Assembly: GCA_965238175.1 (NCBI GenBank)
Contig: CBDEGZ010000003.1
Span: 3,040,001-3,104,000 of the forward strand
Length of the DNA: 64,000 bases
Direction of reading: 5' to 3'
Source: Gammaproteobacteria bacterium
GTDB taxonomy: Bacteria; Pseudomonadota; Gammaproteobacteria; CAJXQU01
The notes beneath the pieces were generated by a model, which saw only the letters and a list, made by a program, of their open reading frames with translations, did no database searches and was not told where the DNA came from. Shown piece after piece: positions 32,255 through 36,214 of the stretch. The position numbers were made by a program, and so were the translations under genes. Numbering within the stretch: the first letter of the stretch is position 1; each line of letters opens with the position of its first letter.

Positions 32255-33480
32255 TGTAGAAGTTTAGACCCAATCTGACACATCACTAAATCAAGCGGAG
32301 CGTAGCGACGCTTGATTTAGTGAGAGTTACCCGCTTTGATGTAACTGCAACGTAAACATCAAAACACAAAGAGGTAACTCTCATGATTCATACTAATGAC
32401 AAAGTTATAAAACATAAAGTTGGTCTACTCAATCTCGCTGAAGAACTCGGCAATGTCTCAAAAGCCTGCAAGATGATGGGTTTGTCCAGAGATACATTTT
32501 ATCGCTACAAAGAAGCGGCTGATGAAGGCGGTGTAGAAGCCTTGTTTGATCGTAATCGGCGTACCCCAAATCTTAAAAACAGAATCGACCCGGCTATTGA
32601 AACCGTTGTGCTCGAGTATGCACTGGAAGAGCCCGCACATGGTCAAACGCGCACCAGTAACGAGCTGCGCAAACGGGGAACATTTGTCTCACCCAGTGGC
32701 GTTCGTTGTATCTGGCTTCGTCATGGTCTTGCTTGCTTTAAAGATCGCCTGAAGGCATTGTCTGATAAGGTAGCTGGTGAAGGCTTGATCCTCACTGAGT
32801 CTCAAGTCGCGGCGATGGAACGCAAGAAAGACGACGATGAGGCTTGTGGCGAGATAGAGACGGCACACCCTGGTTATCTTGGCTCGCAAGATACTTACTA
32901 TGTCGGTACTTTCAAAGGCATTGGTCGGGTTTATCAACAAACGTTTGTTGATACTTACAGCAAGGTCGCTCACGCGAAACTGTACCCGACTAAAACACCG
33001 ATTACGGCAGCTGACATGCTCAATGACCGCGTCCTCCCATTCTACGAAGAACAACGTTTGCCTATGTTGCGCATTTTGACAGATAGAGGGACGGAGTATT
33101 GTGGGCGAGCTGACCAGCATGATTATCAGCTTTATATGGCGTTGAACAATATCGAACACACCAAAACCAAGGTCAAATCACCTCAGACGAATGGTATTTG
33201 TGAGCGATTCCATAAGACGATCCTCAATGAGTTTTATCAAGTCGCTTTGCGTAAGAAAATTTACCAATCGATTGATGAACTGCAACTCGACCTTGACGAA
33301 TGGTTGCTCAAATACAATACTCAACGAACTCACCAAGGCAAAATGTGCTGCGGGAGGACGCCGATGGAAACACTCATCGACGGACAAGCTATCTGGAAGG
33401 AAAAGTTTTTGAACTAAACTTAACCTGACAGTCAGTTACAGAAAAAGGGGTAACTGTCAGATCAAGTCTGAATTTCTACA
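32255..33480 (+). mobile_element. IS481-family element, copy 1 (1226 bp)
   Basis: TGT...ACA ends with IRs tgtagaagtttagac / gtctgaatttctaca; 7-bp target duplication ATTAAAT. Confidence 0.95.
32383..33417 (+). CDS. IS481-family DDE transposase
   Basis: [21 protein letters not shown]; rve core [26 protein letters not shown]. Confidence 0.95.
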
Positions 33481-34207
33481 ATTAAATGTAATTCGTGGTA
33501 TTGCCGACCAAACTAATTTACTTGCACTCAATGCCGCCATTGAAGCAGCTAGAGCGGGTGAAAATGGCCGTGGTTTTGCCGTTGTTGCTGATGAAGTAAG
33601 GGCCTTGGCACATCGAACACAGGCGTCAACAACAGAAATACAGTCTTTGGTCGAACATTTTCAGAAAAATGTGAAAAGTACAGTTGATGTCATGCAAGAA
33701 GGCTCAGCAAGTTCCTTGTTGGCTACCGAAGATAGCTCTAATGCAACACAAGCACTTGATGAAATCGGCAAACAGATTTATGACATTTTTCAGTTAAACA
33801 CCAATATCGCAAGCTCTTCAGAAGAACAAGGCGCTATTATAAAGAATATTAATGAGAGTATTCAAAGCATAAATGAGAAAGCAAAAGAAACAGCAACTCA
33901 ATCGAATAAAACAAGTCAGTCAAGCACTCAAATAGAGTCAACAGCTTCCGAACTTCAATCATTAATTGCTACTTATAAATTCTAAACAATTAGGCATTTT
34001 TATATTCCTAATATTCTGATGTCAGGCATTCTACGAAACAGCTATTTCTATTTCCAAGTACGCCAATAACAACGACACATTCAGACATAAAATGCTACTG
34101 ATCTTAAGATCGGCAAATAACCTGATGTGATGGTCTCCTCCCCCTAACGGCATCTAGGTGCCATGATTGAACTGACATACACACAATCAAAAGAGGAGAA
34201 GACCAAA

Positions 34208-35221
34208 ATGAAGACTACAACAATCGGGTTAGACATAGCAAAAAACGTATTTCATGCTGTCTGCTGTAATCAACAAGGGCGTATAATCAAAAAGAAAATG
34301 TTAAAGCGAGCGCAGGTACTCTCCTTTTTTCAATCTCAACCTCCTTGTTTAGTCGCAATAGAATCTTGTGCAACGTCACAGTATTGGGCCCGAGCGATAC
34401 AACAACAGGGACATCAGGTGAAATTACTACCACCTCAGCATGTTAACGCATTTCTAATCGGCAATAAGAATGATTATAACGATGCCTTGGCCATCGCCGT
34501 TGCTGCGAAACAACCTCATTTAAAAAGTGTGGGCATTAAATCAGTTGAGCAACAAGACAACCAGGCACAACATAAAGCAAGAGACTTAGCGGTCAGACAA
34601 AGAACCGCATTATGTAACCAAATGAGAGCGCTTGTTGCAGAATATGGCATTAGCCTTCGTCCCGGCCTAAATACCCTACGTCAATCTATCCCGTTGCTAT
34701 TAAGTGATGAGAACGAACGGTTGTCCGTTACTTTCAAAAGGATACTGCGCCAGCTAAAGGAACAATGGCAATCACTTGATGCCTGTATTGCGACATTTGA
34801 CCAATTGATCATTCAATCGGCAAAAAACAATGCGATTTGCCAACGCTTACAAACTATTCCAGGGTTTGGGCCGATGGTCTCGAGCGCGTATTTTAATGAA
34901 GTGGGAAACGGCGCTCATTATCACAAAGGGCGCGATGTGTCCGCCTCATTAGGACTTGTTCCACGACAGTACAGTAGTGGTGGTAAAGAGGTGCTACTGG
35001 GGATCAGTAAACGCGGCAATAAATACCTTCGTTGTTTGTTAATTCTAGGCGCGAAGGCCGTGGTATCAAGAGCCAAAACGAAAGGCGATAAACTGAGTCA
35101 ATGGATTAATCGTTTAGTTGAGACGCGGGGGCATAATCGAGCGTGTGTGGCGTATGCCAACAAAATGGCAAGAATGGCCTGGGCTATAACGGTTTCTGGT
35201 GATGACTACTCACCGGCCTAA
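34208..35221 (+). CDS. IS110 DEDD recombinase/transposase
   Basis: IGLDIAKNVF, AIESC, KNDYNDA, GLVPRQYSSGGK..L.GISKRGN.YLR; RBS gaggag. Confidence 0.95.
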   Translation: MKTTTIGLDIAKNVFHAVCCNQQGRIIKKKMLKRAQVLSFFQSQPPCLVAIESCATSQYWARAIQQQGHQVKLLPPQHVNAFLIGNKNDYNDALAIAVAAKQPHLKSVGIKSVEQQDNQAQHKARDLAVRQRTALCNQMRALVAEYGISLRPGLNTLRQSIPLLLSDENERLSVTFKRILRQLKEQWQSLDACIATFDQLIIQSAKNNAICQRLQTIPGFGPMVSSAYFNEVGNGAHYHKGRDVSASLGLVPRQYSSGGKEVLLGISKRGNKYLRCLLILGAKAVVSRAKTKGDKLSQWINRLVETRGHNRACVAYANKMARMAWAITVSGDDYSPA

Positions 35222-35224
35222 ATA

Positions 35225-35450
35225 GAGAGAACAAATCATTTCAACGAATTGCGAAGGTAAAACTAAAGATGGCATAACAGGTCAAACCAGCCTATTGAAA
35301 ACCTGTCGAGCTCAGGGGTAACTAATACCGATAACCTGATAAGGAAAATAGGCGCGTAATACATCCAGGTCAGAAGTTGAAAACTTCATTGAAGGCCGTA
35401 TATATGACAGCAATCCTGTCCCTGTTATCTGAATGTTTTATCTTGCAATA
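35225..35450 (+). ncRNA. Predicted bridge RNA / seekRNA of the IS1111 element
   Basis: Contains matches to both strands of the reconstructed target (35306-35316, 35331-35339) and of the donor junction (35361-35365, 35400-35407); gcctatt...aataggc stem. Ends are approximate. Confidence 0.75.
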
Positions 35451-35470
35451 CGGGAGGAGACCATATATGA

Positions 35471-35705
35471 ACTCAAGATTCATGGAGCTTTCCACAGGGA
35501 CTAACCCAGTGATCCGCTCACCACTAAGCGTCCGACCCAAAACAGCTGAATAGATATCCACCGCTGTTCCTAATGGCGTAAATCCGACGCCTAGGTCAAC
35601 TGTCTTCCCAAACTCCCACAGCAGATCCACAAAATTCAATGGATCATTCCCCACATAGGCATACATATTCAACCTATAAGCAATTGGATCCGGTTGTAAA
35701 GATCA
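35471..35705 (-). pseudogene. Rhs core end plus pre-toxin (PT-TG-like) fragment
   Basis: LQPDPIAYRLNMYAYVGNDPLNFVDLL (degenerate Rhs core terminus), then DLGVGFTPLGTAVDIYSAVLGRTLSGERI. Confidence 0.8.
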
Positions 35706-35791: not shown

Positions 35792-36214
35792 ATGAAACTT
35801 TGGAATACATGCGAAGGTACTGGTAGCCTTCCAAAAAAAGCAATCGTAATATTCAATGCCTTCGAACAGAAGTTCAATGACTATATTACCGAAAAGAACT
35901 ACGGCAGCGGATTGAAGCAATGGTCGGTCATATTTATTATCGCTGGCGGACCGCTGGATCCAGGCTTTACTGAAAGAACTATGGTAAAGAGAAGCACACA
36001 GAAGATGGATTTTCGCTTGCGGGTAGATTTTGAGGCTTTTAAAAAAGGTAACACACAAAAACGCACTTTTCTAATGTATGATACTTTGCTTCGATCCCTA
36101 GATATTCTCGCGGCAAAGAAGGTCAAAGACTTCGACCTTGACAGTCTAAGAAAAGATTTTGAGGCTTGCGCAGGGCTGAATGGTTGGAATATCGATCCTG
36201 ATGAAACCGTCTGA
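35792..36214 (+). CDS. Putative immunity protein (Imm44-like)
   Basis: 140 aa; NYGSGL..W..IFII...ER.......MDFRLRVDFEAF pattern; RBS gagga; next to the Rhs remnant. Confidence 0.65.
   Translation: MKLWNTCEGTGSLPKKAIVIFNAFEQKFNDYITEKNYGSGLKQWSVIFIIAGGPLDPGFTERTMVKRSTQKMDFRLRVDFEAFKKGNTQKRTFLMYDTLLRSLDILAAKKVKDFDLDSLRKDFEACAGLNGWNIDPDETV

Follow-up and report, generated by a model that had tools for sequence, protein, structure and literature searches.

A recently active IS1111-group insertion sequence whose downstream RNA very probably reads both its target and its own ends

A 64-kb stretch of a gammaproteobacterial genome (contig CBDEGZ010000003.1 of assembly GCA_965238175.1, positions 3,040,001 to 3,104,000; hereafter the window, in whose own numbering positions are given) contains an intact IS1111-group element of 1345 bp (34126-35470). 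The question that this locus raises is whether the non-coding region downstream of its transposase gene (tnp) specifies an RNA that can be read against both the DNA into which the element inserts and the element's own ends. We conclude that this is very probably a recently active insertion sequence (IS) of the IS1111 group, IS110 family, with a DEDD/serine recombinase that is guided by a downstream RNA of about 145 nt, in which one loop reads the target and a second reads the ends of the circular form, and that insertion occurs at a TG dinucleotide. The anatomy of the element, its copies with their flanks, the corresponding empty sites, and the way in which guides covary with flanks and with ends are taken directly from genomes. 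Systems of this kind have been known since 2024; the element is a clean further example, with an unusually complete internal control.

We assigned the element to the IS1111 group by its DEDD and Transposase_20 domains, by sub-terminal repeats of 7-17 bp, and by a longer non-coding region 3′ of tnp. The recombinase matches the Pfam domains DEDD_Tnp_IS110 (PF01548; E 3.2e-16) and Transposase_20 (PF02371; E 6e-20), the left and right inverted repeats begin 5 nt and 3 nt, respectively, inward of the core, and the non-coding sequence amounts to 249 nt downstream of tnp (35222-35470) versus 82 nt upstream (34126-34207). The sub-terminal repeats, the downstream non-coding region and the protein of 330-350 amino acids (aa) by which PMC11187229 defines the group are all present. 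In an alignment of the recombinase with 26 relatives (27 proteins), D9, E52, D89, D92 and G258 are invariant, and the C-terminal motif GL-P----S(T)G is represented by LGLVPRQYSSGG, in which G249, P252 and G258 are invariant. Matches to known structures are weak and confined to the C-terminal domain (IS621, E 2.3e-4; ISCro4, E 2.5e-4); the S257-G258 stretch aligned with the corresponding SG of the IS621 chain. Bearing in mind that the catalytic serine of IS621 is S241 (PMC11208158), we read the residue aligned at S257 as that serine; DEDD plus serine chemistry would be expected from these conserved residues and from homology with ISEc11 and IS621. Translation probably starts at the ATG at 34208, the best candidate; an upstream ATG at 34163 is less likely.

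The non-coding region downstream of tnp is predicted to fold into two domains. The single-sequence fold contains both of their stems (minimum free energy -61.3 kcal/mol, z -2.68, 2 of 200 shuffles as stable), and an RNAalifold consensus of 53 sequences has 31 pairs, 22 of which are retained through compensatory changes on both sides; at 35292/35351, for example, 33 sequences have GC, 14 have AU, and the remaining 6 have CG, UG or UA, which are likewise standard pairs. These 53 sequences come from the 58 elements described below, from which we omitted two duplicates (L047 and L108), a near-duplicate (L081), one with a deletion (L065) and one that is cut short (L105). Both loops are, on this comparative evidence, real features of a conserved, covariation-supported predicted fold. 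The internal loop of the target-binding domain carries a top-strand guide (T guide) on its 5′ side and a bottom-strand guide (B guide) on its 3′ side, with a hairpin between; the loop of the donor-binding domain carries UACAUC (right-donor guide) on its 5′ side and AUAUAUG (left-donor guide, 35400-06) on its 3′ side, again with a hairpin between. The initial annotation had pointed to ATAACCTGA at 35331-39 as identical to the top strand of the left target, to TCGAGCTCAGG at 35306-16 as identical in 9 of 11 positions to the bottom strand of the window copy's target, to ATATATGA at 35400-07, which recurs at the right end (35463-70), and to ACATC at 35361-65, and had placed the target matches inside a gcctatt/aataggc stem (35290-96/35347-53). 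All of these are present in the sequence; folding, a check that had been proposed with them, recovered both stems, which are in the consensus fold as well, and the assignment of target and donor guides to two loops agrees with the conserved fold and with how the guides covary with flanks and ends. We considered and set aside a terminator-like hairpin at 35406-20, which is unconserved in the relatives and competes with the conserved helix P1.

The host assembly (3.35 Mb in 3 contigs) contains 24 full copies of the element and one more that is cut by the start of contig C3. We take the element to have been active recently because 22 of the copies are 100% identical and the gene is intact; the other two differ by one base each. 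The left flank reads AACCTGA in 24/24 copies, preceded by T in 23/24; farther out the left flanks are unique, so the copies are separate insertions. Most of the 24 show the right-flank consensus ACTCGGGATAAG. Empty sites, in which TAACCTGA is joined directly to ACTCGGGATAAG with a single TGA (such as those near C3:123575 and C3:2865098), fix the element boundaries, and they place the invariant left flank outside the element; at the occupied site in the window, TGA stands at both junctions (34123-25 and 35468-70). From the 24 flanks and the empty sites, insertion is sequence-specific and involves no target duplication beyond the shared core. The usual target, TAACC-TG-AACTCGG, is the terminal inverted repeat of a repeat of about 205-220 bp that is present in about 9 copies. 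This repeat (e.g., C3:2300475-2300690) is non-coding and resembles a miniature inverted-repeat transposable element (MITE), and the element has inserted at both of its ends.

Several further observations concern the copies themselves. Of the two variants (C3:393960-395304 and C3:747417-748761), one carries a C to T change at the equivalent of 34846, in tnp, and the other an A to G change at the equivalent of 35393, which adjoins the donor-loop stem. Solo left-end fragments of 37-80 nt, including two overlapping inverted copies of 37 nt, and a degenerate relative with 79% identity over the first 384 nt lie on the same contig (C3:1154719-1154798, 1393277-1393336, 2897434-2897503 and 2357914-2358383). 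Contig C3 begins inside a copy (1-1318), and another copy (3330595-3331939) lies 936 bp from its end; the repeat formed by the element probably caused the assembly break.

Another key observation to emerge from the host genome is that, among TAACCTG sites, pairing with the T guide predicts occupancy. At the 24 occupied sites, 35306-12 pairs at 6 of 7 positions in 14, at 5 in four, at 4 in five and at 3 in one; at the 491 unoccupied TAACCTG sites it pairs at 7 positions in 2, at 6 in 7, at 5 in 33 and at 4 or fewer in 449. Pairing at 6 or more of the 7 positions is therefore found at 14/24 occupied versus 9/491 empty sites. A guide-perfect site would read TAACC-TG-AGCTCG(A/G), and at the second base after the core, for which the guide calls for G, 3 of the 24 copies have G and 19 have A. 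The commonest flank, AACTCGG, forms 5 Watson-Crick pairs and 1 wobble, and the flank of the window copy forms 5 Watson-Crick pairs of 7. The initial annotation had proposed collecting such flanks and had named a preferred target; the usual site, with AACTCGG as its right half, departs from the guide-perfect AGCTCG(A/G) by one C·A mismatch. The two mismatches behind the 9 of 11 identities of the window insertion are C·A pairs, one at position 2 and one at position 6 counted from the core.

Further evidence for both loops comes from relatives. We scanned one genome per species, found 386 related loci and kept 80, among which the nearest relatives, from marine Gammaproteobacteria, have proteins that are 77-78% identical. 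The sub-terminal repeat allowed us to set both ends of 57 loci, which with the window copy make 58 elements; 52 of these were scored, in which the flanks sufficed on either side and the right-donor guide could be aligned, and loci were dropped if a flank was short or N-rich or if no repeat was found. In the alignment of their non-coding regions, a conserved scaffold is interrupted by four short variable blocks. The T guide makes on average 5.02 Watson-Crick pairs plus 0.40 wobble pairs, of 7, with the right half of its cognate target, versus 2.16 plus 0.89 with non-cognate ones; the B guide fits 4.65 of 6 positions of its cognate left half versus 1.74 for non-cognate halves; and the right-donor guide pairs with positions 1-5 of its cognate left end at 4.37 plus 0.44 of 5, versus 3.85 plus 0.49. 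For each of these three guides, the observed sum of fits was reached by 0 of 2000 permutations. The set contains 50 distinct targets: L031, which has the same ends as the window element, occupies a GATC-TG-AGGTTA site and has guides to match, L035 and L036 target ..TG-GGTATA, and L042 targets ..CG-CAATGA. Guides change with targets on a constant scaffold, a natural covariation that points to the guides as readers of the flanks; the initial annotation's description of the recombinase as programmable stands to that extent, for retargeting as it occurs in nature. A distant-mode search of PLSDB plasmids gave no record covering at least 80% of the element; its best matches are 70.7% identical, involve the RNA scaffold only and lie on Klebsiella, Raoultella and Escherichia plasmids, two of which, on inspection, carry unnamed IS110-family genes.

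These relatives also define the core. In L034-L036, A follows TG at the left junction and T or G follows it at the right junction; what the junctions share as a core is therefore TG, and the left end begins with A. The initial annotation had given the core as TGA, an appearance that arises because insertion targets in the host genome invariably have A next to TG on the right. Relatives use either a TG or a CG core, and the choice changes together with the guides: at core position 1 (T or C), the left-donor guide, the B guide and the right junction agree in 54/58 elements. Position 4 of the left end (A, T or G) is the base specified by the right-donor guide in 55/57 elements, and in L057 the left end GATGTAAT and the guide AUUACAUC match perfectly. 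With so little variation in the ends, the evidence for the donor loop is thinner than that for the target loop.

We also noted an asymmetry of the core in 12 of the 58 elements (L056, L058, L059, L065, L077, L083, L086, L088, L093, L094, L100 and L108): the left junction is TG, and CG is found at the right junction and in the T, B and left-donor guides. The reverse arrangement was never seen among the 58, and in the same twelve the right-donor guide never specifies CG as the core (it gives TG, CA or AA; one element has no guide block). This asymmetry could reflect a heteroduplex core, tolerance of a wobble pair, or the order of strand exchange.

A number of observations weigh against an RNA-guided insertion as we have described it. 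When the window copy is taken alone, its guide matches are suggestive and not significant: with dinucleotide shuffles of 35222-35442 compared with 32-nt target and donor junctions (n=2000), an exact match of at least 9 nt to the target top strand arose in 54/2000 shuffles, one of at least 8 nt to the donor top strand in 152/2000, and matches to both donor strands jointly in 99/2000, and no exact match to the bottom strand of the window copy's target exceeds 5 nt, a length that 1990/2000 shuffles reached. The matches become strong because of the other genomic copies and the relatives; the permutation counts for the relatives in turn overstate independence because the elements are phylogenetically related. 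The commonest flank has the C·A mismatch to its guide, six of the 24 copies occupy sites that pair at just 3-4 of 7 positions in the right half, and the sole guide-perfect site (C3:393937-393960; 6 Watson-Crick pairs plus 1 wobble of 7) is unoccupied. That empty site lies about 20 bp from a copy in the opposite arm of the same palindrome, which is paired at just 3 + 1 of 7. Three of the poorly paired copies (C3 starts 945279, 1054150 and 2865993) have a right flank of AC followed by what is apparently the terminal repeat of another IS, which is the same for at least 25 nt in all three, starting 2 nt after TGA (3 after TG), and their left flanks are unique; either the hot spot is common to both elements, or insertion needs no more than the left half plus core. 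Rfam 15, queried with 33900-35700 at E values up to 1, matched no family; such a match is not a defining feature of this kind of element, and the negative shows only that the library has no curated model for it. A search of sequencing runs gave no RNA run with the element, which says nothing on its expression. No circle junction was present in the assembled contigs of three runs from one sample, nor were any joints or an empty-site contig; the repeat unitigs of those assemblies end at 34118/34119 and at 35470. Finally, an 82-nt short seekRNA of ISEc11 with the target matches sufficed for movement in the published assay (PMC11187229), which raises the question of whether the donor loop is needed.

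How do other explanations fare against the same data? If the left flank TAACCTGA belonged to the element, the boundary would have been drawn 8 nt too far in, and 35331-39 would be a repeat of the element's own end; the invariance of the left side in all 24 copies while the right side varies would be accounted for, as would the assembly unitig that runs from 34118 or 34119. The empty sites, in which TAACCTGA meets ACTCGGGATAAG without the element, contradict this idea, and relatives with the same ends have different left flanks that their B guides follow (L031, L035, L040, L042 and others), so that we consider it extremely improbable. We give next to no credence to matches by chance combined with target choice by the protein alone. 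Such an explanation draws on the weak single-copy statistics and on the fact that the RNA is known here from sequence alone, and it is contradicted by the covariation of guides and flanks over 50 distinct targets, by the occupancy statistics in the element's own genome, and by a structure that is kept through compensatory changes.

Greater weight attaches to the proposal that only the first loop guides: the protein would recognise the ends via the sub-terminal repeats, and the second-loop matches (35360-65 and 35400-07) would be scaffold, present by descent or chance. The 82-nt ISEc11 RNA supported movement even better than the long form, and the same authors suggest that the two families may recognise their ends differently (PMC11187229); the single-copy chance of the donor matches is high, as noted above for the 8-mer and for both strands; and ATATATG is nearly self-complementary, which inflates the matches. 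The seven closest relatives are near-invariant in their ends and second loop (exceptions are the left end of L057 and single guide bases in L034 and L057), and for that reason they say little on the donor loop. The wider set argues in the other direction: the guide follows left-end position 4 through its three states; L051 pairs a left end AATGAG with a guide CUCAUU, and L057 and L099 pair GATGTA with UACAUC; the left-donor guide agrees with the right junction at core position 1; and the right-donor guide prefers its cognate left end in the permutation test. Durrant et al. (PMC11208160) also predict that IS1111 bridge RNAs have donor-binding bases, in many cases within a multi-loop. We therefore judge guidance by the first loop alone to be unlikely, and we favour a bridge RNA in which both loops act as guides.

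For a two-loop RNA of this kind, homology with ISEc11 and IS621 leads us to hypothesize the following cycle. The element would excise as a circle, and its joined ends would create a good sigma-70 promoter directed into tnp and from there into the RNA: as computed, TTGCAA (35443-48) would be separated by a 17-nt spacer from TATGAT (35466-69 plus 34125-26), and TTGCA is conserved in the relatives. A promoter scan found none on the + strand within the element (3 sites versus 2.5 expected; the sole + strand site, 34066-93, is in the left flank). The RNA (about 35277-35419) would then bind the recombinase; its donor loop would hold the circle junction, with 35360-65 on the left end and 35400-06 on the right end, and its target loop would hold the target, with 35306-16 on the top strand (right half and core) and 35331-38 on the bottom strand (left half and core). 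Strands would be exchanged at TG, such that the element enters TAACC-TG-AACTCGG; weaker look-alike sites, of which the site of the window copy is an example, are used occasionally.

The arrangement of the guides relative to the DNA strands provides a new lead. In IS621, once the first strands have been exchanged, two handshake bases that adjoin the top-strand guides pair with the other DNA, and handshake bases that pair with their own DNA block the reaction (PMC11208158). In the clade studied here, pairing of the T guide continues into its own left target half (position -1 is paired in 40/53 elements versus 15.4 expected; 0/5000 permutations). The AU that follows the core in the B guide (35339-40) is identical to the two bases with which the left end begins in 41/53 elements, and the same AU never equals both first bases of the right target half (0/53). 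Furthermore, in 28/53 elements versus 19.3 expected (11/5000 permutations), the right target half begins with the same base that follows the core in the left-donor guide. If these are handshake guides, handshake-like bases would lie on the bottom-strand guides, opposite from IS621, and it is possible, if on balance doubtful, that the clade's bridge RNA is the mirror image of that of IS621 relative to the DNA strands: with the DNA turned round, the IS1111 RNA shows the IS621 layout. The strand that is 'bottom' relative to tnp would then be exchanged first, and the reversed guide order of the IS1111 type would follow from this. In PMC13626964, which was checked for an earlier account of IS1111 handshake guides, IS1111 is confined to the reference list.

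Insertion into the ends of another mobile element has a precedent: IS4321 and IS5075, also of the IS1111 group, are said (Partridge and Hall, 2003) to insert at a fixed position in the 38-bp inverted repeats at the ends of Tn21-family transposons, and here the ends are those of the 205-220-bp non-coding repeat. The closest described parallels are ISEc11, ISPa11, ISKpn4 and ISPst6, IS1111 elements with seekRNAs (PMC11187229), which have in common with it a transposase 330-350 aa long, sub-terminal repeats, and non-coding sequence 3′ of tnp. According to the same source, IS1111-family seekRNAs also have the top-strand match 5′ of the bottom-strand match; their long form of about 150-170 nt fits the 143-nt body closed by P1; ISEc11 and ISXne4 exemplify natural retargeting between relatives; and the target of ISPa11 is likewise a repeated palindromic sequence, in that case a repetitive extragenic palindrome (REP). 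The target differs here (TAACC-TG-AACTCGG, at the end of a MITE-like repeat), in a comparison by description with an element that we know from its sequence. With IS621 (PMC11208160, PMC11208158), the element shares two internal loops, each with a top- and a bottom-strand guide that meet at a 2-nt core, a circle-junction promoter (computed here) and DEDD plus serine chemistry (expected here from conserved residues). In contrast to IS621, whose RNA is in the left end, the RNA here is at the right end, downstream of tnp; the guide order is reversed in each loop; the core is TG (CG in many relatives) rather than CT; long sub-terminal repeats of 13 bp are present; and the handshake-candidate bases are on the bottom-strand guides rather than the top-strand guides. 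ISPpu9 of Pseudomonas putida, with its small RNA Ssr9 (PMC12288879), is alike by description: it is an IS110-family element with repeated palindromic targets and a small RNA gene 3′ of the transposase gene.

Table 1. Positions of the element's features in the window, including predicted RNA domains and guides.
Feature	Position	Strand	Details
Left target half (LT)	34115..34122	+	AAATAACC; read by bottom-strand guide 35331-36
TG core (crossover dinucleotide), left copy	34123..34124	+	TG at both junctions in 24/24 copies
Left-end tip ATGTG	34125..34129	+	Outside the inverted repeat; with core G, pairing partner of the right-donor guide
Left sub-terminal inverted repeat	34130..34142	+	ATGGTCTCCTCCC; exact 13-nt inverted match to 35452-64; repeat also in relatives
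Recombinase gene	34208..35221	+	337 aa + stop; GAGGAG ribosome-binding site 34193-98
Predicted bridge/long seekRNA body	35277..35419	+	143 nt; helix P1 35277-81/35415-19
Target-binding domain	35290..35353	+	Stem 35290-97/35346-53; CCT/AGG 35302-04/35342-44; central hairpin 35317-20/35326-29
Top-strand guide (T match, right target guide)	35306..35316	+	35306-12 with the 7 target bases after the core; 35313-14 with the core; 35315-16 with the 2 bases before
Bottom-strand guide (B match, left target guide)	35331..35340	+	ATAACC-TG-AT; identical to left junction 34117-26
Donor-binding domain	35354..35411	+	GC/GC clamp 35354-55/35410-11; stem 35368-71/35394-97; hairpin 35373-77/35383-87
Right-donor guide UACAUC	35360..35365	+	Pairs with core G + ATGTG of left end; U·G wobble at the fifth left-end base
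Left-donor guide AUAUAUG(A)	35400..35407	+	Same as right-end tip + core, 35463-70
-35 hexamer TTGCAA of would-be circle-junction promoter	35443..35448	+	Computed
Right sub-terminal inverted repeat	35452..35464	+	GGGAGGAGACCAT; 13 bp
TG core, right copy	35468..35469	+	
Right target half (RT1-7), window copy	35470..35476	+	AACTCAA; C·A mismatches to guide at positions 2 and 6

Upstream of the gene, we observed that the region of the tnp ribosome-binding site (GAGGAGAAGACCA, 34192-34204) resembles the right inverted repeat and, in the predicted fold, pairs with the left repeat (34130-34142). The left repeat could in principle mask the ribosome-binding site in read-through transcripts, and the minimum-energy fold of 34110-34225 does pair them, but with z -1.51 and 15/200 shuffles as stable we did not retain this candidate. 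Around the insertion, the window holds an IS-rich patch (32383-33417, 33605-33985, 35471-35672 on the minus strand, and 35792-36214) with an IS481-like transposase gene (HTH + rve), a C-terminal MCPsignal fragment of a chemotaxis receptor, and an Imm44 immunity-protein gene. A minus-strand open reading frame runs into the right end of the element, and its 67-aa stretch (35471-35672) had no match in Pfam; we presume that it resembles the end of Rhs cores.

RNA-guided recombinases of the IS110 and IS1111 type are under development as programmable tools for DNA insertion, and mechanistic knowledge of them has so far come mostly from IS621 and a few IS1111 elements. The element and its 57 relatives constitute a natural series, in which one scaffold is combined with about 50 target specificities, two core dinucleotides and several end variants, and which reveals the RNA positions that read particular DNA positions in an IS1111-type system. 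It also records a mismatch that is tolerated in nature, the C·A at position 2 after the core in 19/24 insertions. For its host, the element accounts for about 25 identical repeats in the genome, for at least one interrupted open reading frame in the window and, probably, for the break in the assembly.

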